Origin: Microbacterium pygmaeum
GTDB lineage: Bacteria; Actinomycetota; Actinomycetes; Actinomycetales; Microbacteriaceae
Assembly: GCF_900100885.1 (NCBI RefSeq)
Contig: NZ_LT629692.1
Location: forward strand, 1,809,966 to 1,833,965
DNA: 24,000 nt
Reading direction: 5' to 3'
Position numbers and translations under genes: made by a program. This document shows, piece by piece, positions 5,361-21,530 of the stretch. The first letter of the stretch is position 1, and each line of letters begins with the position of its first letter. The notes beneath the pieces are model-generated. The model ran no database searches and was not told where the DNA came from. It saw only the letters and a list, made by a program, of their open reading frames with translations.

Positions 5361-5632
5361 GCCCGGGTCGTCAACGCGGAAGACGACAGATGTGGATAGA
5401 TGACGGAAGACGTCGTCAACTGGCGTTGGGGTGGAGGGATAGCGCCCTCCGACGCAGAGAGTCCGGCGATCGTTCGCGCCTCTCACTCCTTGCAGACTCC
5501 GTGCTGGCGCGCTCCGCTCAGCAGCCGTTCGATGACAAGCATTGCGCCGCGCCCGATCGCCGAGTGGGCCGAACCTCGGTGCGATAGCGCTTTCGCTGAA
5601 GCTCACCATCCGGGCAGCTGCTCATGGATCGG

Positions 5633-5659
5633 CGCTGACGTCGAGTCGCTGACGTCGAG
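5633..5659 (+). repeat. Tandem 13-bp direct repeat CGCTGACGTCGAG x2 immediately upstream of the MazG-like gene
   Basis: Identical copies at 5633-5645 and 5647-5659 separated by 1 nt. Each contains the GACGTC palindrome. The second copy ends 17 nt before the GTG start at 5677. Confidence 0.5.
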
Positions 5660-5676
5660 GCTGATAGCTTCGCATC

Positions 5677-5997: not shown

Positions 5998-7711
5998 CAT
6001 CGAGAAGCTCGGTTTCGACGTAGCGGCGATCGCCGCACTAGCGCGGGGCGATAAGCGATACTCCAACTGGCCCGTAGTGTACGTGTTGGACGGCCGGGCA
6101 CAGACTTCGGTCTACGTCGGCGAGACCGTTAACACAGTCGCCCGCATGCGCCAGCACCTGGCTTCGCCGTCGAAGTCAGGGCTGAGCACGATCCGCGTCG
6201 TCGTCGATGACACCTTCAATAAATCCGCGTGCCTCGACCTCGAGTCGCACCTCATTCGCTGGCTCGCAGGCGACGGTCGATTCACGGTTCTTAATGGCAA
6301 CGAGGGCATCATCGACGCTGAGTACTACGACCGCGCCCTCTACAGAGAATCGTTCCGCGACATCTTCGAGCAACTGCGCGCGGAGGGTGTCTTCGGGCGC
6401 AGCATCCCCGAGATCGAGAACGGCGACCTGTTCAAGCTGTCGCCGTTCAAGGCGCTGACGCCCGATCAGGCGATCGCTGTCGAGGACATCCTCGAGGGCT
6501 TGTTCGTCGATCTTGCCGCCGGTACGGGGTCGACGGCCGTCATCCAAGGGCAGCCGGGTACAGGCAAGACCATCATCGGGATCTTTCTGCTGAAGCTTCT
6601 GGCGGACATTCGCGACTACGACGACTTGGACGATGTTCAGCCTGACTCGATCTTCTCGGAGCTATTCGTGCCCGAGCACCGAGCGCTGCTCGACGGCTTC
6701 CGCATGGGTCTGGTTGTGCCGCAACAATCGCTGCGCGAGTCGATCCGGCGAGTCTTCAAGAAGACACCAAAGTTGCATCCGGGGATGGTCCTATCGCCCT
6801 GGGACGTCGGGCTCGGCGGTGGAGACTATGACCTCCTCGTCGTTGATGAGACTCACCGGCTGAACCGACGTGCCAATCAGTCCTCCGGGATGCGCAACCT
6901 CGACTACCAGCGCATCAACGAGAAGCTCTTCGGCGCAGATGACTATGCGAAGACTCAGCTCGACTGGATCAAGGCCAAGAGCCGCCACCAGCTGTTGCTC
7001 GTCGACCGTGAGCAGAGTGTCCGCCCCGCCGACCTCCCGGACGCCATCCTCCGCGGAGAGCTGGAGGTCGCCCGTGCAGCGGGGCGTCGCTATCCACTAA
7101 CGACGCAGATGCGCGTCCGCGCCGGCACTGACTATGTCGACTTCATTCGTCGCCTCCTCCGTGGCGAAGCGGAAGAGGGGGCTCGCCCCGACTTCGGCGA
7201 GTACGATCTCCGCTTTTTCGACGACGTCGGCGCCATGCGCCGCGCGATCTTTGCTCAGGATGCGTCCCGCGGTCTCGCCAGACTTGTCGCGGGCTACGCG
7301 TGGGACTGGGTGAGCAAGAAAGATGTCGACGCATCCGACATCGTGCTAGACGATGTCTCGATGCGATGGAACAGCAAGGACACCGATTGGATCAACTCAC
7401 CGGGGTCGCTTCACGAAGTCGGCTCCATCCACACCGTGCAGGGCTACGACCTCAACTACGCGGGCGTGATCATTGGTCCCGACCTGCGCTACGACCCGAC
7501 CTCGGACCAGCTCTTCGTCGACCGTGATTCGTATCGTGACAAAAAGGGCAGCGAGAACAATCCGCGCTTGGGTATCACTTTCACCGACGAGGAACTACTG
7601 CAGTACATCCGCAACATCTATGGGGTGCTACTGACGCGCGGGATGCTCGGGACATTCGTCTACGTCTGCGACCCAGCGCTCCGCGAGTATGTGCGATCTC
7701 GGTTCGCCTGA
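5984..7711 (+). CDS. GIY-YIG nuclease-like domain fused to a DUF2075-type P-loop NTPase (SF1-helicase-like, Schlafen-C-terminal-like)
   Basis: I trimmed the track ORF (5870) to the ATG at 5984, which overlaps the MazG-like stop by 14 nt. The N-terminus VYVLDGRAQTSVYVGETVNTVARMRQH...LESHLIRWL...LNGNEG fits the GIY-(x10)-YIG, Arg, Glu, Asn order. Walker A is GQPGTGKT and Walker B is LLVVDETHRL. C-terminal SF1-like blocks are HTVQGYDLNYAGVIIG and VLLTRGMLGTFVYV. Confidence 0.8.
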   Translation: MTPFSIEKLGFDVAAIAALARGDKRYSNWPVVYVLDGRAQTSVYVGETVNTVARMRQHLASPSKSGLSTIRVVVDDTFNKSACLDLESHLIRWLAGDGRFTVLNGNEGIIDAEYYDRALYRESFRDIFEQLRAEGVFGRSIPEIENGDLFKLSPFKALTPDQAIAVEDILEGLFVDLAAGTGSTAVIQGQPGTGKTIIGIFLLKLLADIRDYDDLDDVQPDSIFSELFVPEHRALLDGFRMGLVVPQQSLRESIRRVFKKTPKLHPGMVLSPWDVGLGGGDYDLLVVDETHRLNRRANQSSGMRNLDYQRINEKLFGADDYAKTQLDWIKAKSRHQLLLVDREQSVRPADLPDAILRGELEVARAAGRRYPLTTQMRVRAGTDYVDFIRRLLRGEAEEGARPDFGEYDLRFFDDVGAMRRAIFAQDASRGLARLVAGYAWDWVSKKDVDASDIVLDDVSMRWNSKDTDWINSPGSLHEVGSIHTVQGYDLNYAGVIIGPDLRYDPTSDQLFVDRDSYRDKKGSENNPRLGITFTDEELLQYIRNIYGVLLTRGMLGTFVYVCDPALREYVRSRFA

Positions 7712-7742: not shown

Positions 7743-9314
7743 TCAGCCGACCACGACGCGTTGCACATCTTCGAGCGTCACCTCGCGTCCGACGCTCAGA
7801 AGCGCGAGGAGCATTTCGGCATCAACCCGTCCGTCCTGCGCATGCTGAATCAATGCAATCCATGCTGTGATGCCGACAGCGGACCCTGGGACGCCCGTTT
7901 CATCAACGATCTTTCGTAGACGGGGATTGATGCTTGCGCCGAAGCTGGAGGAGATAAAGACCCACGCTTTAAGCTTCGGCGACTTCTGAGCGTAGGCGGC
8001 CACATACTCCTTCATCGCTCTCTCGTCGCTTGCAGGGAGGGTGTATCCGTTCCCGTGCGCCTTCGTGTCGACGATGATTCGCCAAGAGTTGTTGTTGTCG
8101 ACTACCACGTCGGGTTCCCTCCCAGCGCCTCCAACGTGCCGGGCATCAAGTTCGAACACGCGCTTGAAGACATCTGTCGTCGCAAGCTCGAAGTCCCGCG
8201 CGCGCTCGCGACTCGAGCGAGCCATCTCCGCGTAGCCGAGAAGGAACTGATCCAGCGTGCGAGATCGGTCCGGCATCACGCGGCCCAGTGCCGCGCTGAC
8301 GGACGCCGGACTAAAGCCGGTGGATGCCGACACGCGCTCCAAGAATTCGGCAGGAGGGACCGCGACAATCATCTCGGTGCGGGCAATGCCAAGGACAACC
8401 GTCTGAACACGTAGGTCGATCGCTTCTTCCCGAGAAAGCGCTCGCGACCCCGACAGATTTCTGGTGTCCTTCGATCTTCCGGGGGGCAAGCCGTAGCGAC
8501 GCTGGAATTTCTCTTCATTCTGCGGGTCAGGGATGAGGGCCGCCCCGCCGTGTTGCTCAATCAATTCCTGAGCGAGCGTCTCGCGTCCAGGAGTGATCCA
8601 GATTTGGTCGTCCTGCCGCTCGACGAGGTTGGTATGCTGCATCCAGTTCATCGCCGTGTTCGCAATGTCGGCGAGTGCTTCGCGCAGCCGGTCAGGTCTT
8701 CCTCGATTGGAGCAGAAGCGCGTTGAGAAGTCCGGCTCAAGACTCGAATCGCCGTCTTCGCGATATTGCAGGATGGCCTCGACGACCTTGTCCCGACCTG
8801 CAACGGTGTGCCGGTCACCGAGGGTGATCACTCGCAGAGCAATCTCTTCCTGGGCTAGGTAGCCAACGCGATCGTCAAGGAGTAGTCGAAGTAGCAGAAC
8901 CATCGGCCTTAGCTGGAACCGTCGGTCGACATCGACATTTCGGCCGACGGAGTAGGGCGACGGGAACTGATACTTCAGGACCTGATTTCCGAGAATCGGC
9001 GCCGGCGGCTCTCCGTCGGCGAGCGCTTCACCAGCCAGCGTCAAATACATCCGCTCGTCCGCTTCGCGCTCGAATGCAAGTCCCAAGCTGCGCAGAAGGC
9101 TCGCGTGCGTGCGGCCGCCCGACCCTCCAGCGTCTCGCCTGTCACCCTGGCGCTTGATGGACTCACGTTCAAGGACCTCTTCGAATGCGATGTGCAACTC
9201 TCTTGATCCCGACCATGGCCGACCGTAAGCCACCTCTCGAAGCGCAGCGACTGACTGCGGCACGCGGTAAAGCTTGCGTTGTGGTCGCGTGAAGAACCAA
9301 TACGGCAGAGTCAC
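7743..9314 (-). CDS. Type IIS-like restriction endonuclease with a FokI-type cleavage domain
   Basis: 523-aa ORF with a GTG start. The C-terminal block FELATTDVFKRVFELDARHVGGAGREPDVVVDNNNSWRIIVDTKAHGNGYTLPASDERAMKEYV aligns residue by residue with the FokI catalytic domain as I recall it (..GGSRKPDGAIY..GVIVDTKAYSGGYNLPIGQADEMQRYV). This includes the D...D-x-K catalytic residues. The N-terminal ~350 aa (LPYWFFTRPQRKL...) is presumably the recognition module. The gene lies 93 bp downstream of an m5C methyltransferase on the same strand. Confidence 0.85.
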   Translation of the reverse strand: MTLPYWFFTRPQRKLYRVPQSVAALREVAYGRPWSGSRELHIAFEEVLERESIKRQGDRRDAGGSGGRTHASLLRSLGLAFEREADERMYLTLAGEALADGEPPAPILGNQVLKYQFPSPYSVGRNVDVDRRFQLRPMVLLLRLLLDDRVGYLAQEEIALRVITLGDRHTVAGRDKVVEAILQYREDGDSSLEPDFSTRFCSNRGRPDRLREALADIANTAMNWMQHTNLVERQDDQIWITPGRETLAQELIEQHGGAALIPDPQNEEKFQRRYGLPPGRSKDTRNLSGSRALSREEAIDLRVQTVVLGIARTEMIVAVPPAEFLERVSASTGFSPASVSAALGRVMPDRSRTLDQFLLGYAEMARSSRERARDFELATTDVFKRVFELDARHVGGAGREPDVVVDNNNSWRIIVDTKAHGNGYTLPASDERAMKEYVAAYAQKSPKLKAWVFISSSFGASINPRLRKIVDETGVPGSAVGITAWIALIQHAQDGRVDAEMLLALLSVGREVTLEDVQRVVVG

Positions 9315-9407
9315 CGGGCCAGACTATGGCCTGCCTGTCGACGGCTACCCTCATATGGCGCGACACGCAGAAGCCGATGTTTCAGAGGTGACGGGGAGCC
9401 CGTCCGG

Positions 9408-10565
9408 CTAGCTCGCCTCCGCAACCATCTCTCGGAGGTCGGCGACGCGTCGGGGAGGCACTCGGTGATGAAGGTTCGGCTCGAGGCCGACGTAATCGAT
9501 GCCGGCGAATGATTTTAGAACTGCCTCGAAGACGATCCGAGCCCCTTCCACCGGCACCGCCATACCGATCTGCTTCCGGACGCTCTCCTTGCCTCCCTTG
9601 AACTCGAAACGATCCGGGAAGGTCTGGATGCGGGCCCGCTCACGGTTGGTCAGGGCGCGGTCCTCGGACCAGTGGTAGACGTGGGTCCCACCACCGCCGG
9701 AGCCGGTGATCGTGTAACACGGCTTATCTGCTTCCAGTCGCTTGTAAATCTGGCTGATCCGCGCGCCCGCAACGTTGAGTCGAAGGTCTGCAGGGAGATC
9801 CGCGGTGAACGCGTTTTGGCCCGGTTTGATGTGCTGCAGGCGGCGCACGACGTCCTCACTCTGCTTGGTGAGCTCTTGGTTGGCCGCCCAACCCGGGATC
9901 TCGCTCAGGGCAAGCCGAACGGAGTTGTCACGGTCAGCAAACATCGCTGGCGATGGCACCCTGAACTCCACGTCCAGGTCATCTCGGATTCCCACGATGA
10001 GGATCCGGTGCCTGCGCTGAGGAATTCCGTACTCTTCAAACTTGTAGAGGTGAGGATATAGGCGGTAGCCGGTCCAGGGAGCTGGACGGCCCTCGCTGTC
10101 AGTTTCGCCTCCCGCGTGCTGGAGCCTATCGAGGATCATCTCGAATGCGGTGCCATCGTTGGAGTTCCGAAGTCCTCCCACGTTTTCGGCTACGAACCAC
10201 TTTGGCGAGTAGGTGTCAATGACGCGAGCGCCGTACTCGTAGAGGGGTCCGAACTCCCCAGCGATCCCCTTACGCTCGCCGACGTTTGAGAAGTCGTTGC
10301 AGGGGAATCCGAAAGCGAGGCCATCGATCGGCGACAGCTGCCCGGCGATGTCGAGCTTCCTGACATCCTCATGAATCACCCGAGCGCCGGGGAAGTTGTG
10401 CTTATAGGTATCGCACGTGTCGCGGTCGTAGTCGGTGGCCCATGCATGCGCGATGCGGTACCCCTCCACGGAACCGGCGGCCTGTCGTGCGCCCTCGGCG
10501 ATGCCGCCGGGCCCACTGAACAGTTCGCCCAGTCTGAATACTTCAGTGCGATCGCTGACTGACAC
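9408..10565 (-). CDS. DNA (cytosine-5)-methyltransferase
   Basis: 385-aa ORF with a GTG start preceded by GAGAGG. The m5C MTase motifs appear in order: I FSGPGG, IV GFPCNDFS, VI AENVGG, VIII QRRHRILIVG, IX NRERARIQTFPD, X GMAVPV. Confidence 0.93.
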   Translation of the reverse strand: MSVSDRTEVFRLGELFSGPGGIAEGARQAAGSVEGYRIAHAWATDYDRDTCDTYKHNFPGARVIHEDVRKLDIAGQLSPIDGLAFGFPCNDFSNVGERKGIAGEFGPLYEYGARVIDTYSPKWFVAENVGGLRNSNDGTAFEMILDRLQHAGGETDSEGRPAPWTGYRLYPHLYKFEEYGIPQRRHRILIVGIRDDLDVEFRVPSPAMFADRDNSVRLALSEIPGWAANQELTKQSEDVVRRLQHIKPGQNAFTADLPADLRLNVAGARISQIYKRLEADKPCYTITGSGGGGTHVYHWSEDRALTNRERARIQTFPDRFEFKGGKESVRKQIGMAVPVEGARIVFEAVLKSFAGIDYVGLEPNLHHRVPPRRVADLREMVAEAS

Positions 10566-10693: not shown

Positions 10694-11155
10694 ATGAGCT
10701 CAGCGCAACCCGCTTCATGGGCCAGTAGCGAGACGGCACGCCGGACCATGCTTGCCAATCGCTCGAAGAACACACAACCCGAGTTGGCCGTCCGGAAAAT
10801 CCTTCATGCCGGCGGTCTTCGGTACCGCGTGAATATGCGCCCGATACCGCTTCTGAGGCGCACCGCCGACGTCGTGTTCACCCGAGCACGAGTCGCTGTC
10901 TTCATCGATGGATGCTTCTGGCACAGCTGCCCTGAGCACTCCTCCCGGCCGAAGTCGAACAGCGACTACTGGGGGCCCAAGCTTCGTGGCAACGTGGAGC
11001 GAGACCGACAGACAGATCGCGCGCTCGAGTCAGCGGGGTGGCTTGTGTTGCGCTTCTGGGAGCACGAATCCGAGGTCGAGGTCGCCGAGGCGATCGCGCT
11101 GGCTGTGCGGGCCCAACACTCCTCGTCGTTGGATGCCTCGGGTGTCAAAGATTGA
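10694..11155 (+). CDS. vsr: Very short patch repair endonuclease (T/G mismatch-specific)
   Basis: 153-aa ORF. The sequence NRSKNTQPELAVRKILHAGGLRYRVN...PDVVF...VAVFIDGCFWHSCPEH...NSDYWGPKLRGNVERDRQTDRALESAGWLVLRFWEHE is the canonical Vsr motif set. The gene is divergent from the m5C MTase. Confidence 0.92.
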   Translation: MSSAQPASWASSETARRTMLANRSKNTQPELAVRKILHAGGLRYRVNMRPIPLLRRTADVVFTRARVAVFIDGCFWHSCPEHSSRPKSNSDYWGPKLRGNVERDRQTDRALESAGWLVLRFWEHESEVEVAEAIALAVRAQHSSSLDASGVKD

Positions 11156-11903
11156 GATTTTCGCGGAAGCTTTCCTCGACAATCTGAAAGAGCTCTGCCT
11201 CCGGAAGCGTGCCCAGCGCGCGGCGACCGGCGAGGTAGTCGAGATCCTCGAGGAACGAACGCACCCCCACTCGGTCGTAGGGAGTTTCCTGGTTCACCAG
11301 GTAGTTGGTGAGCACGCTGAGGAGCGCTCGGGCGAGAGCCGGGACCGTCGCGAGGCTGGGTCGGCCGAGCACCTGAACTGACAGATCGCTGTTCGAGAAG
11401 AACGCCTGCAGGGCGGGATTCAGGTCGCTCGGATCGGCAAATCGGCGAACATACGAACCGCTCCACCAGAGCCGGGCAATGGCGTGATCCCGCTCTCGCC
11501 GCCTGTCCGTGCTCGCAAACACGTGATTGATGACGTGATTGCCGAGCGCGTCATCGCTAGCCGGCCAACGATCCCGCGTGTAGTTGCGAAAGTAGCCGAG
11601 TGCCAGCGTCACCCAGAGGCGCTCGTCGACCGCGTCAGCCGGGGTGAGGTTGGGCAGAACGCGAAGAATAAGTCGAGCGTTCGCCGCGTCCAAGTCACCT
11701 TGCCGGGTGTCTCCGTCGGACAGCTGGAGCCCGCAGTTACCGTCAACCTCGTATTCCGACTCAATGAATCGCAGGTCGAGGGTCTTGACTAGTGCGTCCA
11801 AATCGTTGTTCCAAACTTCAGCCGCCTGGGACCCGGCCGCCATCACTCGCAGCGTGTCAACGGAATCGGCGGTGAGAATGCGCAACTGTTGCATCTCAGA
11901 CAT
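11145..11903 (-). CDS. Hypothetical protein, fourth and last gene of the GHKL-ATPase operon
   Basis: 252-aa ORF. Its ATG overlaps the upstream stop by 8 nt (ATGTCTGA). Codon bias is good and the protein is mostly helical and Trp/Arg-rich (ERLWVTLALGYFRNYTRDRW, IARLWWSGSYVRRF). I recognise no catalytic motif. Confidence 0.75.
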   Translation of the reverse strand: MSEMQQLRILTADSVDTLRVMAAGSQAAEVWNNDLDALVKTLDLRFIESEYEVDGNCGLQLSDGDTRQGDLDAANARLILRVLPNLTPADAVDERLWVTLALGYFRNYTRDRWPASDDALGNHVINHVFASTDRRRERDHAIARLWWSGSYVRRFADPSDLNPALQAFFSNSDLSVQVLGRPSLATVPALARALLSVLTNYLVNQETPYDRVGVRSFLEDLDYLAGRRALGTLPEAELFQIVEESFRENLNL

Positions 11904-12738
11904 CTGCGACCTCGACCTTCTTGATTCCTTTCGCGCTCACGAGAAGCTGTGCGGAGATCTCCTGATACTCAGGGTCGTCCGGATCGAGCGCGCGCCCAAG
12001 GTCTTCCAGGCGACTCATCAAAGTACGGCCCCACGGCAACTCCGTGTTCTCGCCGTCCTCCTCACGTGCGAGGTAGTTCAGCGCGCCGGCGATGCAGTCC
12101 TTATAGACGCTCATGAACAGGTACGGCCGCGTGGACCGATCGGCGCGCATGTGCCCGATGGCATCGCGGAGACTCTCGCCGGCGATGATGATGATGCGCG
12201 GGCCGTCGTACTGGAAGCGATAGATGTCCGTGTCCGACTCTTCGGTCGAGTACTTGATCGTCACCAGGTCGCGGTCGAGTGTTCGGGAGAACTCCAGGTC
12301 GACGGTGACCGATTCGCCGACGCCGAGGATGTCGCCTTCACGAACACCGAACACAGATGTCCCGAACTCTTCATTGATTCCATCGGGCCGATATGTCTGG
12401 TTCGAGGAGCTGGCAATGATGAGCGGCGTGAGCGTGGTGCTGCCGTACAGCTGGCCATCGTCGAACACGAGCTGACCCTTCCACCCGTCCAGGTCGACAT
12501 ACTCTCTGAAGAGAGTCGATCGGCACTGAACGTCCATCACAATGCGCGCATTGCCGTCGAGGAAGTATTCGTCCATCCACGCCACCGACTGAGTGATGTC
12601 GTATGTGACGACGAGCTGCTGCGATGTGTCTCCGCCCATCTCAGCTTCAATTGCGGCGTGAAATTTGGCATCGCTTCCGAAGTCGTCGCTGAACGAGGAG
12701 AGGACTGGGTACGGGTATGCCTTGGCTCGATAGCTCAC
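11896..12738 (-). CDS. Hypothetical protein, third gene of the GHKL-ATPase operon
   Basis: 280-aa ORF with a GTG start in a GTGA overlap with the ATPase stop. The N-terminus is SYRAKAYPYPVLSSFSDDF. It has an acidic, beta-rich middle and a helical C-terminus. I recognise no motif. Confidence 0.75.
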   Translation of the reverse strand: MSYRAKAYPYPVLSSFSDDFGSDAKFHAAIEAEMGGDTSQQLVVTYDITQSVAWMDEYFLDGNARIVMDVQCRSTLFREYVDLDGWKGQLVFDDGQLYGSTTLTPLIIASSSNQTYRPDGINEEFGTSVFGVREGDILGVGESVTVDLEFSRTLDRDLVTIKYSTEESDTDIYRFQYDGPRIIIIAGESLRDAIGHMRADRSTRPYLFMSVYKDCIAGALNYLAREEDGENTELPWGRTLMSRLEDLGRALDPDDPEYQEISAQLLVSAKGIKKVEVADV

Positions 12739-14660
12739 GGTTCGAGTCGCCCTTCAATCGCATAGTCGAGGTCTGCTGGGTGGAAGACGAGGCGGAGATG
12801 CTTGCGCGCGGTGGCGCTTAGCTCTGTGAATTCGAGTGAAGTGCGCCACGCTGAGCCCGCGGCCACTTCCTCCTCGGTCCGGAACTCCAGACGCTCAGTC
12901 TCCGAGTCGCCCGAGCGGAGCAGGACGAGAGTCTTTCGCGTCCCGTCCACCGGCGTGAAGGCGACATCGGCTACACCTGATCCTGGTGCCGTCCGAACGA
13001 CGCGAAGGTTTCGAACGGGGAGGCCGGTCCGAAGCGCGCTCTTCGCGGAACCCGAGCCATCGCCGGGGAAGGTTCCACCCTTCGACTTGTGCTTTCCTGG
13101 GCCGCCGTTGGATCCGCGGCCGGACGTGTCCGCATCGCCGGTGAGTTCGGTCTGCCTGTTCTCTCGATGTGAGCGAGCCTTCTTGAAGGCGATCCGCAGG
13201 GTTCGGTTCGGCTCGCCCTTCTCGTTGTCAACGCCAGCGCCTAGATCGCCCCGGAACCAATCGTCCAAGTCGTCGACGGACACCTCTTCTTCAATCTGGA
13301 TAGAAGCATGCTCTCGCAGGAGGCTCCGCACGCTCGATTGGAACTTGTAGTAGGCGGCTTCCGCGGACTTTCTCTCCGTCATGTCGCTGATTCGATCAAA
13401 CGCGAACTCCGTGTGCTCTGGGTTCTCGAGCTTTCGCAGAAGCTCCGAGCCCTGGTCTCCTGACACGCAGACAAACAGGTCGAACGGCTTCAGACCCGGA
13501 AAGCGCTGCAGCTTCTCTGCTGCTCGTGTGATCAGCATCCCGTTGCCGCGGGCGACGCCCACGTGACGCCCGACAACTCCATCAAGGCGGAGATACCAGT
13601 TGATCGTTCCGAAGTCCTCCAGTTGGAGTGTTCCGGAAAGATCCTTCTTGCGCACGGTTCGCGCGGATTCGAGTCGCTCGACGACCTTGTCTGTCGGCTT
13701 GAGTATGTTGATCAAGTCCGTTTCGACCACATCGTCGAATGCCTGGGCAACGCTGTCGGCGTCGATGCGTTCGTGCTCGCCCAGATGGACCACCAACTTA
13801 TTCGTAAGCACGGCGAAGTAGAAGTTTGCGACGACTGCGAGCTTGACTTCCGCCCACAGCAACTCTTCTTCCTCTACCCCATACGGCTCTGGAATGTACA
13901 CCGACGTGCCAACGCTCAACGCATCCCGGTCGAGCTCTGGTCGCGCCTGAATCGCCCATCGTGGCACCTCGCCGTCTGTGAGGGGGAGGCACTTCGTCCG
14001 AATGCCGAAGTACCCGGTGGCGACGCACCACTCGGGGGCACCGGTCACTTCGGTAAGGGGGACAGATTGAAGGATGCTCTTCCCTTGGAACCTCGTCTCG
14101 AGCGAACCCTCGTGCTCGATGCGGGAAAGGTAGAAAAGGGTGCGGAGCTCTGACATGGCGAATGGCGCCCGCGACCCATGCCCGAAGGAACCTAGGGCGG
14201 AGCTACTCTCCTTGAAGGTCATGCCAGCCCCCTTCACCAGGGCAAGCCATGGCCCTGATTGCGGATTCTCCGGCGGATCAAAGGTGGGCCCGGTCAGCCC
14301 TCTCGTGTTGTAGTCGTGGACCCCTAGGAACGTGACGTGGCCGTCAGCGACCTGATCGATCGCTCGCTGGTAGAAGCTCTTGCCGGCCTGAGTGTGTTCC
14401 AGCTTGTGCGCTGCCTTGAAGTAGCGAGCGAGCTCATCGAATCCCGTGTCGTCGAGGTCGGACGTCGTGTCGAGCGTGAATCGCACAATGACTGGGTCAC
14501 TGGTCTTGTCCTGCGCGTCGAGCGAGTTCTGGATCATCTCGCGTACGAGTGCTTGAAGGCGCTCGCTCTTGAACATGTCGATTGCCGACACGTTGAATCC
14601 CTCTCGAGTCCCGTCGTTTAGGAACGGAAACTTCCAACCCACATCACTTGTCATGCTCAC
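12735..14660 (-). CDS. GHKL (Bergerat-fold, HATPase_c / MORC-, sacsin- or Hsp90-like) ATPase with a long uncharacterised C-terminal region
   Basis: 641-aa ORF. The N-box is LVREMIQNSLDA, the G1 box is GVHDYNTRGLTG, and the G2 box is LGSFGHGSRAPF, all within the first ~170 aa and in the canonical order. Next come ~330 aa I cannot assign and a low-complexity linker (TGDADTSGRGSNGGPGKHKSKGGTFPGDGSGSAKS). The protein ends in a ~100-aa beta-rich C-terminal domain. Confidence 0.85.
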   Translation of the reverse strand: MSMTSDVGWKFPFLNDGTREGFNVSAIDMFKSERLQALVREMIQNSLDAQDKTSDPVIVRFTLDTTSDLDDTGFDELARYFKAAHKLEHTQAGKSFYQRAIDQVADGHVTFLGVHDYNTRGLTGPTFDPPENPQSGPWLALVKGAGMTFKESSSALGSFGHGSRAPFAMSELRTLFYLSRIEHEGSLETRFQGKSILQSVPLTEVTGAPEWCVATGYFGIRTKCLPLTDGEVPRWAIQARPELDRDALSVGTSVYIPEPYGVEEEELLWAEVKLAVVANFYFAVLTNKLVVHLGEHERIDADSVAQAFDDVVETDLINILKPTDKVVERLESARTVRKKDLSGTLQLEDFGTINWYLRLDGVVGRHVGVARGNGMLITRAAEKLQRFPGLKPFDLFVCVSGDQGSELLRKLENPEHTEFAFDRISDMTERKSAEAAYYKFQSSVRSLLREHASIQIEEEVSVDDLDDWFRGDLGAGVDNEKGEPNRTLRIAFKKARSHRENRQTELTGDADTSGRGSNGGPGKHKSKGGTFPGDGSGSAKSALRTGLPVRNLRVVRTAPGSGVADVAFTPVDGTRKTLVLLRSGDSETERLEFRTEEEVAAGSAWRTSLEFTELSATARKHLRLVFHPADLDYAIEGRLEP

Positions 14661-15007: not shown

Positions 15008-15089
15008 ACCTCCTCCTTTGGCATCGATCGCCACGAGAGCCAATCGCTCCGGAATGTGGGGATTCCGTTGGCCCATACCGCCGTCGAAA

Positions 15090-15698
15090 ATGGTTACGCT
15101 CGGCGGCATGGAAGCTTTCGAGCAATTTGTAGCTCTCGCGATGGAGCAGGAGGGTCTCGTCGTCTCCGGAGCGTTGAAGTTTCCGGTCAAGGTGCGGACT
15201 ACCAAAGCTGCCTACGAGGAGTGGCAGACCCACGGTTTCGAAGTGGACCTAGTCGGTGCGCGCTCAGACCGCCTCGTGCTCGCGACGGTGAAGTCTTTCT
15301 TCGGCTCGCGAGGTGTCGTCGCCGAGCACGTCCGCGGTGACAGCCAAAACAAGGTGTGGAACGCGAAGTACGCAGTGATAAACAACCCCCGGATCCGAGA
15401 TGGTGTCGTAGCAGGGGCAGCGGCCCGATTCGGATACTCGATCGAGCAGGTGCAACTACGCCTCTATGTAGGCAGATTCGCTGGGGTGGCTCACGAGTCA
15501 GAAGTCCGGGCGTGGTGCGCGAGCCAGACTGTGGGCGCCGGTCCGATTTCGGTCGTCGGCGCCGCTGACGTCGTTGATGTTGTGCGCGCCGTCGCCAGTT
15601 CCAAGACATATCGAGACAGCGCCGTCCTCGCATCGCTCAAGGTTCTCGACGCCGCCGGAGCGCTCCGGCCAGTCGGTGGTCCAGCCGCCCACGCGTAG
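15090..15698 (+). CDS. Stand-alone PD-(D/E)XK (Mrr-cat/restriction-endonuclease-like) nuclease-fold protein
   Basis: I trimmed the track ORF (15018, TTG) to the ATG at 15090, and an ATG at 15108 is equally possible. The sequence MEAFEQFVALAMEQEGLVVSG...HGFEVDLVGARSDRLVLATVKSFF has the helix-E...(E/D)-hD-hh...h-x-K layout of the restriction endonuclease-like fold. The C-terminal ~110 aa are unassigned. Confidence 0.65.
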   Translation: MVTLGGMEAFEQFVALAMEQEGLVVSGALKFPVKVRTTKAAYEEWQTHGFEVDLVGARSDRLVLATVKSFFGSRGVVAEHVRGDSQNKVWNAKYAVINNPRIRDGVVAGAAARFGYSIEQVQLRLYVGRFAGVAHESEVRAWCASQTVGAGPISVVGAADVVDVVRAVASSKTYRDSAVLASLKVLDAAGALRPVGGPAAHA

Positions 15699-15959
15699 TC
15701 CTGACGGCGTCCCATTCGTCCCCGACATCGGTTCATGGCCGGAGCGGGGCGGTCTACCGCGGGCGCTGTCACTTAGTCGCCAACAGTCGTTCTTGGAGAG
15801 TCCACTCAGCAATCGTTTCGTGAATCGGTGTCGGTGACCGCGAGCACTGCAAGTTCGTCAGACGAGGCTCATCAAACTCGCAGGGCGTCTCGTAGTCTGA
15901 GAACCGGTACCGAAGCCCGATCCTCGCTCGACCCGGAAGCTACGCGCAATGGGGCGGTC

Positions 15960-16196
15960 GTGTCTCACCCACCCAGCGGCGACATCATCGCTGCGCACCG
16001 GTCCGCCGAGAATAGATCCGTGAGATTCGCCGCGAAGGAGCGACATTTGATCGAGACCACGCCTAGGCCAAACGGCCATCGGTCGACCGAGGCGTGCTCC
16101 CTCGTCGACTGCGTAGTGGCCGATACGCGGATCCCAGGCGCCAAGGCCATCGAGCGAAGCGGGCGCCGGCTCGAGAGCTGGGAGGAAGCACGGTGA
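15960..16196 (+). CDS. Possible small ORF translationally coupled to the downstream gene (start uncertain)
   Basis: The 3' half of track ORF 15828..16196 has good G/C third-position bias. Its TGA (16194-16196) overlaps the GTG start (16193) of the next gene as GTGA. No motif is recognised, and the Arg/Ser-rich 5' half looks non-coding, so I placed the start at the internal GTG at 15960. Confidence 0.3.
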   Translation: MSHPPSGDIIAAHRSAENRSVRFAAKERHLIETTPRPNGHRSTEACSLVDCVVADTRIPGAKAIERSGRRLESWEEAR

Positions 16197-16861
16197 GGTG
16201 GCAAGACATGCTGGTGGAGGTTCCCGTGCTTTTCGCTGACATAGAGAATGACGAGCGCCAGGCGATCCACTGCACGTACTGCGGCGTTGGAGACGACGAC
16301 CCGTACTACCGCCGAGAGGAACTGTGGATCATCCGCCACTGGAACCGCGAGTCGCCCGTCGAGGGCCGCGAGAGCGGCCACTGGACCATCTATTGCGCGG
16401 ACCACCTCGCGAGCGCCAACCTGCCGTGGAAGTGGAGCCACACTGCGCCGGACCACCTGAAGCCCGAGGTGTGGCCAACAACGCGCTACACAGCAGACCA
16501 GGAGAAGGTCATTGCGATCGTCCAGCAGCTTGTCGAGAAGCCGCTGTGGACCACGTATGGCGACCTTGCGACGGCCGTTTACGGCTCGGTATCGGGTGCG
16601 CGCGGCGTGGCCAGCCTGCTGATGCTATTCCCGCCATCTGACCGCTTCAAGGCTCACGTGCGGATGCAGGATGGCTCCTTGGCCAACAACGTCTTGAGCA
16701 CATCCGACGACGAGAACACCCACTGGGGCGAGGTGTGGACTCGCTGGGCCAAGGAAGACGGCATGCTCGTCACGTCGAAGGGCACGGCGCTGGCGATCCA
16801 GCGCGCGACGCCTCAGCAACTACGCGAACTGGTCGACGAGGATGAGGACGGCGACCAGTGA
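16193..16861 (+). CDS. Protein with a Cys/His-containing N-terminal region and a C-terminal MGMT/ATL-like (methylated-DNA-protein-cysteine methyltransferase DNA-binding fold) domain lacking the PCHR active site
   Basis: GTG at 16193 is preceded by GGAGG at a 7-nt spacing. The C-terminal LWTTYGDLATAVYGSVSGARGVASLLMLFPPSDRFKAHVRMQDGSL parallels the MGMT pattern TYGeiA..iG.p.aaRAVG.a...N...(PCHRV)...G.l, but KAHVR replaces PCHRV. The N-terminus contains HCTYCG...HWTIYCADH. Confidence 0.6.
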   Translation: MRWQDMLVEVPVLFADIENDERQAIHCTYCGVGDDDPYYRREELWIIRHWNRESPVEGRESGHWTIYCADHLASANLPWKWSHTAPDHLKPEVWPTTRYTADQEKVIAIVQQLVEKPLWTTYGDLATAVYGSVSGARGVASLLMLFPPSDRFKAHVRMQDGSLANNVLSTSDDENTHWGEVWTRWAKEDGMLVTSKGTALAIQRATPQQLRELVDEDEDGDQ

Positions 16862-17116: not shown

Positions 17117-17854
17117 CTAGAAGGCTGAACCAAAGCCCGGTAGCACATCCTCAAGCTCCCGCCTTATCGCGTATGGCGCGTGATTACTCCTCAGTCTTCG
17201 CAGTTCGTCGGCACGCATACGAGGGTCAACTTCGATGAACTGGTTGAGGGTCACGAAATACGGCGCGACTAGCCGCGCCGTGAATCCGCGGGTGTAGGTG
17301 GCGCCCATCACTCCTGCTTCCGACCGTGCCGCGCGGACGACCGCCGTGACTTGCGAATGCCCCACCCGCGTGCCACTGACGAGGTTTCGAAGTGCCCCCA
17401 AGTCGATCGGAGGCTGGTCGGATTCACGAAGCTCCGTGGCACTAGAGCACACAAGTGCGAAGTGATGCAGACGAGATACGTTTCCGTTGCTCGTCACCAG
17501 CATTTCGTCCGGAACTCGGTAGGCACGTCCGTCGAATGTTCGCCCGGCTTGCCACAGGCGTAAGCGTGGCGGCTCGCGGTCTTGTAGACGCGCAGGCGAC
17601 AGCATTGACGAGAATCGCACCAGCGGTTCCGCGCCCTGCGCTAACAACGCTGGCAGGGAAGGACGCACACTGTTTCCGATCCCCCACAGGAACACACCGT
17701 TGCTGGAGTTCAGTTCCTCCGATTTTCTTTGCAGGATGTCATCGATGCGCTCTCCCGACTCCGTGCCGTATCGCGTCCAGCAAAATGCCGAGCCCAGCTC
17801 AACACATGCGGTAGCGTCGCCTTGAGTGCGGTCCGGGGCGTCCGTCAATGGCAT
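17117..17854 (-). CDS. Hypothetical protein, paralog A of an unknown family (see 19589-20137)
   Basis: 245-aa ORF with an ATG start. It shares ordered blocks with the 182-aa protein at 19589-20137: GERIDDILQRKSEE, VFLWGIGNS, HFALVCSS, LVAPYFVTL. It carries an extra ~45-aa C-terminal extension. Confidence 0.75.
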   Translation of the reverse strand: MPLTDAPDRTQGDATACVELGSAFCWTRYGTESGERIDDILQRKSEELNSSNGVFLWGIGNSVRPSLPALLAQGAEPLVRFSSMLSPARLQDREPPRLRLWQAGRTFDGRAYRVPDEMLVTSNGNVSRLHHFALVCSSATELRESDQPPIDLGALRNLVSGTRVGHSQVTAVVRAARSEAGVMGATYTRGFTARLVAPYFVTLNQFIEVDPRMRADELRRLRSNHAPYAIRRELEDVLPGFGSAF

Positions 17855-17896
17855 GCTGCAACCGTACCGGGCGAATCAGTAGGAACGGGGGCCACC

Positions 17897-18928
17897 ATGA
17901 CGCCTTCGTTCACATCGCCCGAGCAACTTCGTCACGAACTTCGGCAAGCTGGCTTATCGAATGACATGATCACCGCGGCTTGGCCGCAGTGGTGGTCCGA
18001 CGATGCCGTCGGATCGACCTCCGCGGAGGCCGAGCTGAGGTTCTCGCTCGCGCGCAAGCTAGGGCTATCTGCGACGTCGCTGCTCGACGACGAACCCGCT
18101 TTCGTGATGCGGGGGCGAGCGAGTTTCAAGCGAGCAACGCTCGGCCGTCAGATCGACGGACTAATGCTCACAACGGTCGGCCACTCGCTTGGGATGCTGA
18201 TCGCGGCCGCAACGACAACCCCTTACCGGCCCTTGACAGGCGCCGCTGCGGTACGCGAGGCCGTCCTCAGCTCTAGTGACTTTGTGGGGCTACAGGACCT
18301 AACGCTTCTTTGCTGGGCTTGCGGGATCCCGGTGGTGTCACAGTCCGTGTTTCCCCTTTCAGCGAAGCGAATGGACGCAATGACCGTGGTTGCCGACGGC
18401 CGCCCCGTCATATTGCTTGCCCGGCGCACCGAGTATCCTGCCTTCCTCTCATTCATGGTTGCGCATGAGTTGGGCCACATCGCGTTGGGCCACGTCACCG
18501 AGGACGAGCCCATAGCGGACTTCTCGACCGAGCACATCGACCTCAGCGACTATGACGCCGCCTATGATCAGGACGACCAGGACGAGGCGGATGCAAACGC
18601 CTTCGCCTTGGAACTGCTTACCGGTGACCCGGCATTCACCGTGAATGCTGATCGCGCTGACTTCAATGCTGCGCAGGTGGCGGCCGCTGCTCGCGAGACC
18701 GGCGAGCGACTACGCGTAGATCCAGGCTTCGTCGCACTCGCCCTGGGGCACAGCACGAAGCGCTGGCCGCAGGTCTATTCGGCGATGCGTGAGTTTGGCC
18801 ATCATGTAGACGACTTGGGTCGGCAACTAAATCAACTCGCCATAAACGAACTTGACGCTGCACAGTTGTCGGATGACTCCTGGGATTACGTGACGCGTGC
18901 CCTCGGATATTCGAGCGACGATGCTTGA
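17897..18928 (+). CDS. ImmA/IrrE-family (COG2856, DUF955) zinc metallopeptidase with an N-terminal helical, possibly Xre-like region
   Basis: I trimmed the track ORF (17729) to the ATG at 17897, which is preceded by AGGAACGGGGG. It has the HEXXH motif in FMVAHELGHIALGHV, followed by an acidic stretch and DEADANAFALELL, as is typical for this family. Confidence 0.8.
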   Translation: MTPSFTSPEQLRHELRQAGLSNDMITAAWPQWWSDDAVGSTSAEAELRFSLARKLGLSATSLLDDEPAFVMRGRASFKRATLGRQIDGLMLTTVGHSLGMLIAAATTTPYRPLTGAAAVREAVLSSSDFVGLQDLTLLCWACGIPVVSQSVFPLSAKRMDAMTVVADGRPVILLARRTEYPAFLSFMVAHELGHIALGHVTEDEPIADFSTEHIDLSDYDAAYDQDDQDEADANAFALELLTGDPAFTVNADRADFNAAQVAAAARETGERLRVDPGFVALALGHSTKRWPQVYSAMREFGHHVDDLGRQLNQLAINELDAAQLSDDSWDYVTRALGYSSDDA

Positions 18929-19613
18929 TCTGCTTGTCGACAACGATGCAGTCGTGAAGCTAGTCCGCTACAGACTCGAGAAAGAGTTCATCCGACACTG
19001 CAACGACGATCCAGCGAAGGATCCGATTGCCCTTCTTGGCACGGCGCGATGGGTTTGCGCTACGGCTTTGCGCCGCGCCGTGGCGAAGCTTGGTGAAGAT
19101 CCCGCGATCTTGGTGTGCTTCGATCAACTTCTACTCGAGGTCGACGTTGTTGAGCCAACCGAAGATGAATTGCGTCTCGCGGCGGCTCTAGAGGATCGGG
19201 CGCGGACACGCGGCCTACCGTTAGACCCGGGAGAGTCTCAACTCGCCGCGGTCGTGTCGCGCCGCCTCGCCTTTTTGCTGACGGGGGACAAGAGGGCAAT
19301 CGCTTCTCTAGAGGCGCTTCTAGACGACTTTGCCGACCTTCGGCCGCTCGTGGGAAGGGTTGCTGCCCTGGAGAACGCGATCATGTCGCTTGTTCTGCAT
19401 CTGGGCGAGCCCGACGTGCGAAACGCAGTTTGTTCGGCCCCGGGGGCAGATACGGCTCTGCGGCTCGCGTTCTCATGCAACTCGCCGTCTTCGTCATTGC
19501 AAGGACTTCTGAGCTACTTGAACAGCCTGCGCCGCGATGCGCCCCGCATCATGGTCGATGCGGACTCGCTTTGCTTCGAACCGCTGCCTCAGTCCCTCAG
19601 GAAGACCGCGTAG
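18921..19613 (+). CDS. PIN-like domain nuclease
   Basis: The ATG at 18921 overlaps the ImmA stop by 8 nt (ATGCTTGA). The acidic quartet is in PIN order: MLDLLVDNDAVVKL (D), LLLEVDVVEPTEDE (E), DPGESQLAAVV, and FLLTGDKRAIASL (D). Confidence 0.65.
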   Translation: MLDLLVDNDAVVKLVRYRLEKEFIRHCNDDPAKDPIALLGTARWVCATALRRAVAKLGEDPAILVCFDQLLLEVDVVEPTEDELRLAAALEDRARTRGLPLDPGESQLAAVVSRRLAFLLTGDKRAIASLEALLDDFADLRPLVGRVAALENAIMSLVLHLGEPDVRNAVCSAPGADTALRLAFSCNSPSSSLQGLLSYLNSLRRDAPRIMVDADSLCFEPLPQSLRKTA

Positions 19614-20137
19614 GGCGCCATTAGTGGCGCCGCTACTGAGATCTTGACCGTTGCGGCGTCCTCCGTGGGCGCGTCAACAACATCGAGACAGGCTTTGTCC
19701 AGCCGGCCGCGAATATAGTCCTTCCCGACTTTGCCTCGCGAGTCGCCTACTCCGACTCGAGTCGCACTCAGGTCTAGCAGGGTGTCAACGTCATCCAGGC
19801 TCGAGAGAACGAGCGCGTATTTCGAACCGAGGACATTTACCTCTGCGGGAATCTCCCGCCACGTTTCGCGGTCCGTCGAGTACTCGCGAGAACGCACTTG
19901 TGCCGCATTGTGATTCGAGTTGATTTCCTGCATGACGAGCGTTATCGGCCCTTCAACTCTTTCCGCAAATTCGCGCACGCGGGTCGGAAAGCAAGAGTTC
20001 CCTCCATATCCCCACATCGCGAATCCAGCTTCCTGCACCTCCCGACGCTTTCTCTCCAAAATGTCTTCGAGCGTCTCGCCGGCATGGACCCCGACTTTCA
20101 TGTAAAGAATGTGGTCTCCCGGTGCGATTTCCATCAC
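19589..20137 (-). CDS. Hypothetical protein, paralog B of the unknown family and third gene of the kinase/transferase operon
   Basis: 182-aa ORF. Its start (GTG 20137 or ATG 20134) overlaps the upstream TGA. Blocks GETLEDILERKRRE, FAMWGYGGNS, KYALVLSS and LMAPYAVFL match the 245-aa protein at 17117-17854. Confidence 0.8.
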   Translation of the reverse strand: MMEIAPGDHILYMKVGVHAGETLEDILERKRREVQEAGFAMWGYGGNSCFPTRVREFAERVEGPITLVMQEINSNHNAAQVRSREYSTDRETWREIPAEVNVLGSKYALVLSSLDDVDTLLDLSATRVGVGDSRGKVGKDYIRGRLDKACLDVVDAPTEDAATVKISVAAPLMAPYAVFLRD

Positions 20138-20961
20138 TCGTCCTCTCCCAGCATGTCAAATTCGTAGCCTCGTTGAACTCCGGCCCCATCGGGGCCGCCC
20201 TTATCGCGGACATATCTCACCCTGGGAATCTGATCGCGACCGTAGAAGTGCTCGAGGTCTACTCCGCGTCGGGGGACACTCTTGACGGGTCGACCGTTTT
20301 GAGGCAAAGAGCTGAGCACGAGGTTGCAGGACTTGAGATCGGGTGCATCGTCGAGGTGATAGGAGTGCAGTTGAGGCGACATCCGACTTACGAAAAAGCC
20401 TGCTTCCAAAGCATGTCTCTGAGTAGCGTGTAAGACCTGCTTGGGCCAATCCAAGTCTTCGTCATCGGCGATGACGATCATCCCATCTCCCTCGTATGCA
20501 AGAAGCTCGAATCCTCGTTGCGTGAAGAGTTGCACGCTCTCTCCCTTGTTGCTGGCTCCCCAGGGCGGGTTTGTATAAAAGCAGTCGAAGCGTTCAATTT
20601 CGTCCGGCACCCCGTCTAGCACGTTGTAGAGCACGGCGTCGAGATTGGTTACACCCTCGGCGGCGGCGAACCGCTTAACGGCGTTGACAATGCGCTCGTC
20701 GAAATCGAAGACTGTAATTTGTGTGGGGGACGTCTCGAGGATGTTTCTGCTCGCCAAATAGGCCACGCAAACGCTGATGGCATCTCCATCTCCGACGAAC
20801 GCGAGCCGCTTCCCGTGTGCCCACCGAGAAACGAACTCGCTCTGAAGAATCATGTCGCCAGTCTTCATATAGATCTGATCAAACTCGCGCAGCGGCTGAG
20901 GACGGTTTTGAACTACGTCTGAAACCGCGTTGATCGCTGCCCGCAAGTCGATGTCAGTCAC
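20134..20961 (-). CDS. BpsA/DUF43-like SAM-dependent transferase (aminopropyl- or methyl-transferase fold with an NPPW motif)
   Basis: 275-aa ORF with a GTG start in a GTGA overlap with the kinase stop. Motif I is RLAFVGDGDAIS, followed by VFDFDERIV and then FDCFYTNPPWG. The protein ends with FFVSRMSPQLHSYH. The order and wording match the branched-polyamine synthase (BpsA)/DUF43 family as I recall it (lGDDDlts...DiDeRl...f.TDPP.T...fn.Y). Confidence 0.75.
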   Translation of the reverse strand: MTDIDLRAAINAVSDVVQNRPQPLREFDQIYMKTGDMILQSEFVSRWAHGKRLAFVGDGDAISVCVAYLASRNILETSPTQITVFDFDERIVNAVKRFAAAEGVTNLDAVLYNVLDGVPDEIERFDCFYTNPPWGASNKGESVQLFTQRGFELLAYEGDGMIVIADDEDLDWPKQVLHATQRHALEAGFFVSRMSPQLHSYHLDDAPDLKSCNLVLSSLPQNGRPVKSVPRRGVDLEHFYGRDQIPRVRYVRDKGGPDGAGVQRGYEFDMLGEDE

Positions 20962-21530
20962 GCGTACCCCACGAATCTGAGAATGTCCGCTGTCACTTCT
21001 CCGAGGGGTCGGTCAGCGCGAATGAAGGCCACCGGCACGCCGAGGGTGATTGCATAGCTCAGCGCGAGCGAAGACTGCAGGCTTTGGTGTAAACCCATAT
21101 CGGTCTCGTCTTGCGCGCGCCTTCCCAGCGCGTTGAGCTGAACCCGCTCGCGAACCGTGGCGTGCGGCCCCGTCAAGCAAACGATGTGTGTGAAGGGAAG
21201 CTCTGTCAATTCATCCGCGCGGTATGGGACGGCACGCAAGCCGTACGATTCCGCGGTCAATGCGTGTGAATCGACGACCGTGTTCTTTAGTCCGGAGAGA
21301 CGGCACAACTCGCCCTTGATCCACTCATCCGCACCCGCCACGTCTGCCGGCGAAATTACAGAGGCTGAGCGCTCACGCAGTTCTGTTTGTGATTTCACGC
21401 GATCCGCAAGCATTCGTGTCAAGATCTCGCCGTAGCTGAGTCTAAGTGCGTCTGTCCTCGCCTCTAACTCCGTGGCGATCGATGATTTGCCGATCGCGGG
21501 CACACCGGTCAGGTACAGGGAGAATGTCAT
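20958..21530 (-). CDS. P-loop NMP kinase resembling archaeal-type adenylate kinase (AdkA-like)
   Basis: 190-aa ORF with an ATG preceded by GGGGG. Walker A is LYLTGVPAIGKSS. The blocks TVVDSHALT...YGLRAVPY and IVCLTGPHATVRERV...GRRAQDE parallel the archaeal AdkA blocks as I recall them (vvvTGvPGvGktT, vDTH...GylPGlP, ii.l....il.Rr...R.Rd.d). Confidence 0.7.
   Translation of the reverse strand: MTFSLYLTGVPAIGKSSIATELEARTDALRLSYGEILTRMLADRVKSQTELRERSASVISPADVAGADEWIKGELCRLSGLKNTVVDSHALTAESYGLRAVPYRADELTELPFTHIVCLTGPHATVRERVQLNALGRRAQDETDMGLHQSLQSSLALSYAITLGVPVAFIRADRPLGEVTADILRFVGYA

Follow-up and report, generated by a model that had tools for sequence, protein, structure and literature searches.

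A mobile five-gene cassette that joins a BpsA-derived transferase and a new protein family to an ImmA-PIN pair: a candidate conflict system

We analysed a window of 24,000 nucleotides (nt) from Microbacterium pygmaeum, in which a preliminary description had singled out three minus-strand genes, for a kinase, a transferase and a protein of 182 amino acids (aa), as a functional unit. The true unit is a cassette of five genes plus an optional kinase gene, arranged as two convergent operons. Operon A has the order (kinase)-transferase-182-aa protein and operon B the order (245-aa protein)-ImmA-like protease-PIN nuclease, and each of the two contains one paralog of a new protein family. We read the cassette as a mobile conflict cassette, that is, a toxin-antitoxin-based abortive-infection or addiction system with an added layer of chemical marking, and consider the chances for and against this reading to be evenly balanced. 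The genes of the cassette in the window are the following, with open reading frame (ORF) lengths where the likely start differs.

20958..21530, minus strand: P-loop protein resembling nucleoside monophosphate (NMP) kinases, 190 aa; accessory gene.
20134..20961, minus strand: BpsA_C-domain transferase (PF01861), 275 aa; core gene with invariant GDGD, TNPPWG and RPxPxxxFDQ motifs and an acidic C-terminal tail.
19589..20137, minus strand: 182-aa protein of the new family; core gene, translationally coupled to the transferase gene; the NCBI start at 20134 gives 181 aa.
18897..19613, plus strand: PIN-domain (VapC-like) nuclease, ORF of 238 aa; likely start 18921 (230 aa), with a C-terminal extension of ~80 aa.
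17729..18928, plus strand: ImmA/IrrE-type HExxH metalloprotease, ORF of 399 aa; likely start 17897 (~343 aa), comprising an N-terminal domain of ~170 aa and the peptidase.
17117..17854, minus strand: 245-aa paralog of the 182-aa protein with a C-terminal extension; core gene, lying beyond the ImmA gene on either strand.

Operon A is built as had been described. Its three overlapping ORFs (20958-21530, 190 aa; 20134-20961, 275 aa; 19589-20137, 182 aa) together span 19589-21530, and at the junctions GCGTGACTG (GTGA) and GAGTGATGG (GTGATG) each stop codon overlaps the next start. All sequence motifs that had been pointed out (TGVPAIGKSS, VDSHALT, FVGDGDAIS, DFDERIV and FYTNPPWG) were found in the translations. 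The GC content dips to 0.56-0.58 across this operon, compared to 0.60-0.69 on either side. In operon B, the ImmA and PIN genes have the same orientation and overlap at the 3′ end of the former. A hypothetical protein of M. pygmaeum matches the 182-aa protein with 100% identity. RefSeq lists the members of the cassette as 'ATP-binding protein', 'bis-aminopropyl spermidine synthase family protein', 'ImmA/IrrE family metallo-endopeptidase' and three hypothetical proteins. Scans for promoters, terminators and inverted repeats around the cassette revealed nothing above chance.

The extent of the unit follows from a survey of the neighbourhoods of 182-aa homologs, in which the five-gene cassette is conserved. 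At least 150 matches confirmed by tblastn (E≤1e-3) were obtained among 185,579 species-representative genomes, and 80 loci carrying the 182-aa family were fetched. These 80 genome loci and five fetched earlier were searched by tblastn with the window proteins as queries. The 182-aa protein and the ImmA-like protein were detected in 85/85 loci, the transferase and the 245-aa ORF in 84/85 each and the 238-aa PIN ORF in 82/85, while the kinase was present in 23 loci, all among the 80 genome loci. An independent sample of 80 metagenome contigs, counted only where a locus had enough flanking sequence, gave the same picture: the transferase was found in all 54 loci with at least 0.9 kb upstream, and PIN and ImmA each in 30 of the 31 loci with at least 2.5 kb downstream. 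The 80 genomes belong to at least five phyla and include Actinomycetota, Alpha-, Beta- and Gammaproteobacteria, Acidobacteriota, Planctomycetota and Chloroflexota. Thus, the three-gene unit does not hold: its kinase is optional, and the ImmA gene, the PIN gene and the gene at 17117-17854 for the 245-aa protein belong to the unit. Co-conservation was found for the transferase and the 182-aa protein, and not for the kinase.

Furthermore, the five proteins diverge together: their distance matrices correlate with r=0.60-0.80, compared to values of 0.25 at most in 300 permutations. Mean distances are lower for the transferase (0.37) and the 182-aa protein (0.42) than for the fast-evolving ImmA-like (0.55), 245-aa (0.61) and PIN (0.66) proteins. 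A slow enzyme pair with a fast toxin side fits a conserved biochemical core that is tied to components under conflict-driven selection. The arrangement is conserved as well. The PIN and 182-aa genes lie tail to tail, with overlapping 3′ ends in 59/83 loci (median −11 nt) and with 25 nt (19589-19613) shared between them in the window. Such an overlap of convergent genes leaves no space for a terminator. The two convergent transcripts would be complementary at their ends. The 245-aa gene is always located beyond the ImmA gene, on the same strand as ImmA in 42 loci and on the opposite strand in 42.

The kinase is an accessory gene, as judged from its frequency together with its shifting position and orientation. 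It is present in 23/80 genome loci and in 11/19 metagenome loci with room on both sides (29-58%), and it takes four placements: 14 loci have it upstream of the transferase and co-oriented with it, 2 have it upstream in the opposite orientation, and in 8 it lies past the 245-aa gene, on one strand or the other. The protein matches the Pfam families AAA_17 (E=1.1e-6) and AAA_33 (E=8e-6). The AdkA-type assignment made earlier stands in one respect, since the nearest named family is adenylate kinase (NCBIfam PRK04040, E=2e-6), and falls in another, since the 27.5 bits obtained lie far under the equivalog cut-off of 155 bits. The nearest solved structures are adenylate kinases as well (9r72 and 7owe, E=3e-4), which are archaeal-type enzymes. 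Because of the low score 'AdkA-like' is a fair term for the predicted resemblance and not for family membership.

These data bear directly on the proposal that kinase, transferase and 182-aa protein form a self-contained operon making or consuming a modified nucleotide or a small-molecule signal. The GTGA and GTGATG overlaps in the window speak for it, and so do the 14 loci in which the kinase gene immediately precedes a co-oriented transferase gene. Nevertheless, the kinase is missing from 57/80 genome cassettes and elsewhere takes up four placements, among them positions past the other operon, and in this subfamily the transferase and the 182-aa protein are almost always accompanied by ImmA-PIN (85/85 and 30/31 loci). 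We therefore regard a self-contained three-gene operon as very unlikely.

The 275-aa transferase has the BpsA/DUF43 layout that had been recognised in its sequence. It matches Pfam BpsA_C (PF01861) over residues 11-203 with E=3.2e-20 and a score of 72.9 bits, where the cut-off is 27. Among solved structures the BpsA enzymes 5xnc, 2qm3 and 6j27 come closest (E=1.6e-9; 8.4e-12 with the family profile), followed by METTL5 with E=1e-3 (family profile). The RPxPxxxFDQ segment is common to the transferase family and BpsA. The C-terminus with the consensus DYGKAHDDEYELELLE is acidic, with a mean of 6.3 D or E among the last 20 residues of 76 members compared to 15.6% overall, a figure that describes composition only. 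In BpsA, Asp159 and Asp160 of the GDDD motif (Gly157-Asp160) hold the aminopropyl group of decarboxylated S-adenosylmethionine (dcSAM), the residues that activate the acceptor include Asp225, and a flexible acidic C-terminal cluster serves as aminopropyl carrier in a ping-pong reaction; the enzyme has a larger architecture with an N-terminal domain (PMC12979288, a 2026 review). In the transferase family, GDDD aligns to GDGD in at least 98% of 76 sequences, so that the Asp159 position is Gly, and the invariant TNPPWG has Asn where the BpsA motif TDPPE has Asp225. An N-terminal domain is lacking: the transferase starts at position 4 of the BpsA_C profile, and its match in the tagged 371-aa chain of 5xnc begins at residue 129. 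Thus, with regard to the dcSAM-binding residues, the BpsA-like domain is kept and the Asp159 equivalent is lost.

Owing to the change of GDDD to GDGD and of TDPPE to TNPPW and to the loss of the N-terminal domain, the transferase is, as judged from its sequence, derived from BpsA yet not a true BpsA. The RefSeq name of a homolog, 'bis-aminopropyl spermidine synthase family protein', is probably misleading, since a motif essential for BpsA catalysis is lost. That the gene encodes a genuine branched-chain polyamine synthase with unrelated neighbours is a reading to which we give next to no weight. This RefSeq name, the BpsA_C match above threshold and the acidic C-tail, as in BpsA (PMC12979288), would agree with it; the invariant GDGD, the Asn in place of Asp225 and the missing N-terminal domain argue against it (PMC12979288), as do the mesophilic nature of the hosts and the spread of the gene on mobile islands. 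Neither SpeD nor SpeE is among the 25 most frequent of the 90 families assigned to 148 ORFs directly flanking 76 loci, or among the window ORFs scanned, so a known polyamine pathway, which the preliminary description had named as an outcome that would speak against its proposal, finds no support here.

Amino-methyltransferases carry an NPPW-type motif, which positions the amino nitrogen. On the basis of this motif the transferase is predicted to transfer an alkyl group to an amine, with S-adenosylmethionine (SAM) or dcSAM as candidate donors. Similarity to methyltransferases is seen in several searches. The PADLOC model of the mad2 methyltransferase gives E=1.8e-11 for a partial core only (residues 47-178 aligned to profile positions 289-411 of 492), and weak matches were obtained with PADLOC MTase_II (2e-3), Pfam MTS (2.8e-4) and NCBIfam (17 bits compared to 353). 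The matches to methyltransferase models being weak, and no restriction endonuclease being encoded in the cassette, the alternative of an ordinary methyltransferase of a restriction-modification (R-M) system is not supported, in line with the earlier suggestion.

The partner of the transferase belongs to a family that is new. The 182-aa protein has no match in Pfam, NCBIfam, PHROG or PADLOC, as had been presumed, and none of its 573 homologs contains a Pfam domain. The superfamily comprises 530 representative clusters (E≤1e-3) in 1.84 billion proteins; fused domains were not detected by Pfam scan in its longer members. The 245-aa protein is a paralog: plain hidden Markov models of the two families find each other reciprocally, hhalign aligns them over 169 columns with a probability of 97.5% (E=7e-12), and both proteins exhibit the pattern E..RK..E...WGxG, then YAL, then PY.V.L. 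Profile searches of the PDB with the 182-aa, 245-aa and PIN families gave no sequence relatives, and three of the five core cassette proteins had no match in the libraries searched. The more divergent superfamily members L092, L141, L143 and L144 have no adjoining BpsA-like gene, and the link to the transferase therefore holds for one subfamily only. In L141 (2770-4451), the divergent member directly follows a double-GNAT acetyltransferase, which takes the place of the BpsA-like gene.

The AlphaFold2 (AF2) model of the 182-aa protein has a mean predicted local distance difference test (pLDDT) value of 90.6 and a predicted template modelling (pTM) score of 0.88. The top, non-significant Foldseek matches of this model in the PDB are nearly all YTH, EVE or THYN1 proteins, which are readers of modified bases. 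The early order of secondary structure elements in the model (strand, helix, strand with Trp, helix, strand) is that of YTH domains. An hhalign comparison of both paralog families with the YTH sequence of YTHDF2 gave no significant match (probability <1%). A PUA-like reader fold of the 182-aa protein is thus a possible lead from modelling. A modification of the Asn in the WGYGGN loop of the 182-aa protein by the transferase, in analogy to HemK acting on GGQ, was also considered and dropped, as this Asn is not conserved.

A reader fold would suit a logic resembling R-M systems, in which the transferase marks an exocyclic amine of host DNA or RNA, the paralogs read the mark and the PIN nuclease destroys unmarked nucleic acid, so that the host is not killed. 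This logic could draw on NPPW as motif IV of amino-methyltransferases, on the weak matches to DNA and RNA amino-methyltransferases (mad2 1.8e-11, MTase_II 2e-3, MTS 2.8e-4, METTL5 1e-3), on the preponderance of YTH, EVE and THYN1 readers among the non-significant folds and on the strong conservation of the enzyme pair. On the other hand, the best homolog of the transferase is by far BpsA and not a nucleic-acid methyltransferase, the match to a reader fold is not significant (E 0.15, TM 0.2; hhalign to YTHDF2 <1%), the PIN protein is closest to VapC toxins of toxin-antitoxin systems, and ImmA-PIN occurs alone in prophages where no modifying enzyme accompanies it. Altogether we consider this alternative unlikely.

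The assignment of the PIN protein, which had been named as a neighbour of the three-gene operon, is confirmed by its fold. The AF2 model (pLDDT 94) matches the VapC structures 3tnd, 5ecw and 1y82 in Foldseek with a probability of 1.0, E from 3e-4 and a TM score (target) of 0.64-0.73. The family shows the invariant series D, D, K ... E ... GES ... TGDKRA ... E ... D, in which the acidic residues correspond to D15, D17, E91, D131 and D185 in ORF numbering. Conserved Cys residues are present in the C-terminal extension of ~80 aa, and the protein matches phrog_15597. A small VapB-type antitoxin gene was not found in the cassette; the partner of PIN is the ImmA-like protease. AHExxH is invariant in the ImmA-like family. 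This protein matches Pfam Peptidase_M78 (E=4.6e-4), the PADLOC models capP (2.9e-11), RmrA (3.2e-8) and PD-Lambda-2_B (1.1e-7), and, over its full length, phrog_18577 (E=1e-52); the only solved relative is CapP (7t5t, E=0.002). ImmA proteases of the RmrA type are validated antitoxins; their toxin partners vary, they act in defence against phages, and a link to PIN domains has been described (PMC10440598). PD-lambda-2, which includes an Xre-peptidase component, defends by abortive infection (PMC9519451). It is because the ImmA-PIN pair fits the RosmerTA pattern that we read the cassette as a toxin-antitoxin-based system of defence or addiction.

The pair is also found on its own. Distant ImmA+PIN pairs (26-33% identity) were recovered from proviral contigs of IMG/VR (L093-L104), and in 12/12 of these contigs the other three genes are lacking. 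Seven of these 12 pairs adjoin two conserved genes that we read by eye as phage portal and terminase (packaging) genes, and such sites resemble a prophage cargo hotspot. Homologs of the ImmA-like protein or of the 182-aa protein were not detected in 50,697 phage genomes.

In turn, the pair of transferase and 182-aa protein occasionally has other toxin-like partners. In three Sphingopyxis loci (L068, L074 and L082, at ~1400-6900) a second transferase + 182-aa pair is preceded by genes for an Xre-type helix-turn-helix (HTH) protein and a HipA kinase and followed by one for an OLD-family ATPase-TOPRIM nuclease. In two metagenome contigs (L145, L147), read by eye, HipA is located upstream of the pair. 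Second pairs with Xre-HipA occur beside or apart from the five-gene cassette. In L091 (14596-16705), at 1.6 kb from the cassette, a trypsin-like peptidase (Pfam Trypsin_2, E=2.6e-5) comes after a second pair. Since ImmA-PIN exists alone in proviral contigs and the enzyme pair with other partners, the cassette is a union of two portable modules, and this combined form is by a wide margin the commonest. Taking this further, transferase and new-fold protein could be a portable chemical-mark module that arms or licenses different toxins (PIN with ImmA, HipA kinase, OLD nuclease, trypsin-like protease), the mark being an aminopropyl or methyl group on an amine that is read by the new family. We put this forward as a speculative extension that has some chance of being right and is probably wrong.

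The mobile defence island on which the cassette had been placed was confirmed. The window contains the following features outside of the cassette.

3884-3956: tRNA-Arg(CCT); left end of the island, ahead of the integrase.
4164-5609: tyrosine integrase, after tRNA-Arg(CCT).
5870-7711, plus strand: GIY-YIG nuclease domain with a Schlafen group-3-like helicase, 613 aa; matches PADLOC PDC-S14 and PDC-S41.
7743-10565, minus strand: type IIS-like R-M pair of an endonuclease with FokI cleavage domain, AlwI-like (523 aa), and a C5 cytosine methyltransferase (385 aa).
11145-14660, minus strand: candidate system PDC-M33 of three genes (PADLOC A E=1.4e-74, B 3.1e-26, C 5.9e-29).
From ~22.1-22.3 kb to 24000, plus strand: TrwC relaxase fused to an AAA_30 helicase, incomplete at the right end of the window.

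The cassette is situated on an island with integrase, R-M genes, PDC-M33 and relaxase, PDC-M33 lying on one side of it and the TrwC relaxase on the other. The relaxase-helicase is missing from the ORF list because the gene runs off the end of the window. Its presence identifies the island as an integrative mobilisable or conjugative element, and in the window the cassette is cargo of this element. A second copy of the tRNA-Arg 3′ end, which would mark the far boundary, is not contained in the window, and the right end of the island therefore lies outside of it. The C protein of PDC-M33 is DUF6339. ORFs of 226 and 255 aa (15018-16861, plus strand) and of 897 aa (1084-3777, minus strand) gave no match in the libraries scanned, and the 226-aa and 255-aa ORFs are not kept beside the cassette in other loci. 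The idea that enzymes of housekeeping type were repurposed on a mobile defence island is supported.

Elsewhere, the immediate neighbours of the cassette include integrases, resolvases and conjugation genes. Defence genes were also found in the neighbourhood, including those of Gabija, Zorya, Lamassu, PARIS AriA, type III R-M, AbiH, DISARM, CBASS, an ABC-three-component system and ScoMcrA. Few copies are carried by plasmids (5/72,556 records) or viral contigs (2).

The setting invites a different interpretation, namely that the cassette serves the maintenance or regulation of the mobile element, through post-segregational killing by ImmA-PIN or through an ImmA-type switch of excision or transfer, and is not directed against phages. 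In its favour, an integrase at tRNA-Arg and a TrwC relaxase are found on the island in the window, the cassette adjoins genes for relaxase, MobC, Trb or integrase in other loci, and ImmA of ICEBs1 is an anti-repressor that controls genes of the element (PMC10440598). Nevertheless, no gene for an ImmR-like repressor is present in the cassette, the neighbours vary by locus and are often defence rather than transfer genes, and only 5/72,556 plasmid records carry the cassette. We give this interpretation a small chance, equal to that of the R-M-like logic.

We return to the preferred reading of a toxin-antitoxin-based conflict cassette with a chemical-marking layer. From the observed gene content, co-inheritance, folds, motifs and genomic context we infer toxicity, a chemical mark, its target and a direction of signalling, as follows. 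By analogy, the PIN nuclease would be the toxic effector and the ImmA metalloprotease the antitoxin or trigger. The transferase would alkylate an amino nitrogen with SAM or a SAM derivative, the transferred group being methyl or of aminopropyl type, and may work through its own acidic C-tail, as in BpsA. The 182-aa and 245-aa paralogs may bind the substrate or the product of this reaction. If the mark were lost or altered, for example by infection, a signal would pass via the protease and release the PIN nuclease.

Several points weigh against this reading. PADLOC (v2), run on the window, has no model that recognises the cassette as a system. The model of the 182-aa protein has no significant Foldseek match in the PDB (best E 0.15, TM ~0.2) or in BFVD. 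For the ImmA protein with its conserved N-terminal domain of ~170 aa, no HTH was matched in Pfam at E<0.1, so that its role as antitoxin or regulator is proposed by analogy. The listing of neighbouring defence genes is descriptive and comes without a genome-wide control. Plain addiction or maintenance would explain the same context, as the island is an integrative mobile element. Finally, any toxicity or phage defence of the members is predicted.

If the cassette is a defence system, it is a widespread candidate, with the at least 150 matches cited above spread over several phyla, and it would bring together a core enzyme type not so far known to be linked to immunity and a family that has no recognisable fold. 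It would also show how a simple ImmA-PIN pair gains a layer of enzymatic control. Should the portable chemical-mark module prove true, it would represent a new way of gating abortive-infection toxins and the first BpsA-type chemistry in immunity. With five small genes and clear point mutants, the cassette is a tractable test case. A full-text search, whose coverage was incomplete, revealed no literature linking BpsA/DUF43 enzymes or aminopropyltransferases to defence, phages or toxin-antitoxin systems, and no earlier account of the cassette.

Among known systems, individual components of the cassette have clear counterparts. The accessory 190-aa protein shares a P-loop NMP-kinase-like fold with AdkA (PRK04040), whereas its score is 27.5 compared to 155 bits and its gene is optional in the cassette. 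With BpsA (PF01861; 5xnc, 6j27), the transferase has a homologous C-terminal catalytic domain, RPxPxxxFDQ and a flexible acidic C-tail in common. It differs from BpsA in length (275 compared to ~351 aa), in GDGD instead of GDDD and TNPPW instead of TDPPE, in lacking the N-terminal domain and the context of a polyamine pathway, in its mesophile hosts and in its location on mobile islands. A Rossmann core and NPPW are shared with amino-methyltransferases carrying (D/N)PP(Y/F/W), such as mad2, type II N6A/N4C methyltransferases, METTL5 and HemK/RsmC, but these matches are partial or weak and the cassette has no restriction endonuclease. Of the methylation-associated defence system MADS, it contains only the partial match to mad2 and no other mad gene.

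The PIN fold and the conserved acidic residues are those of VapBC, from which the cassette differs by the absence of a VapB-type antitoxin, by a metalloprotease of 340 aa as partner and by the extra C-terminal region of ~80 aa in the PIN protein. CapH/CapP and the ImmR/ImmA switches use a protease of the same family, whereas the cassette has no conserved gene for a separate HTH repressor. The closest likeness is to RosmerTA (RmrT/RmrA) and PD-lambda-2, in which, as in the cassette, the gene of an ImmA/M78 HExxH peptidase is followed by a toxin-type gene in one operon on defence islands or in prophages. Compared to RosmerTA, the cassette has three extra, strictly co-conserved genes (transferase and two paralogs), no HTH detected in the peptidase and, as predicted toxin, a VapC-like PIN protein with a C-terminal extension. 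The cassette is thus a RosmerTA-like module with a conserved, previously undescribed enzymatic add-on.

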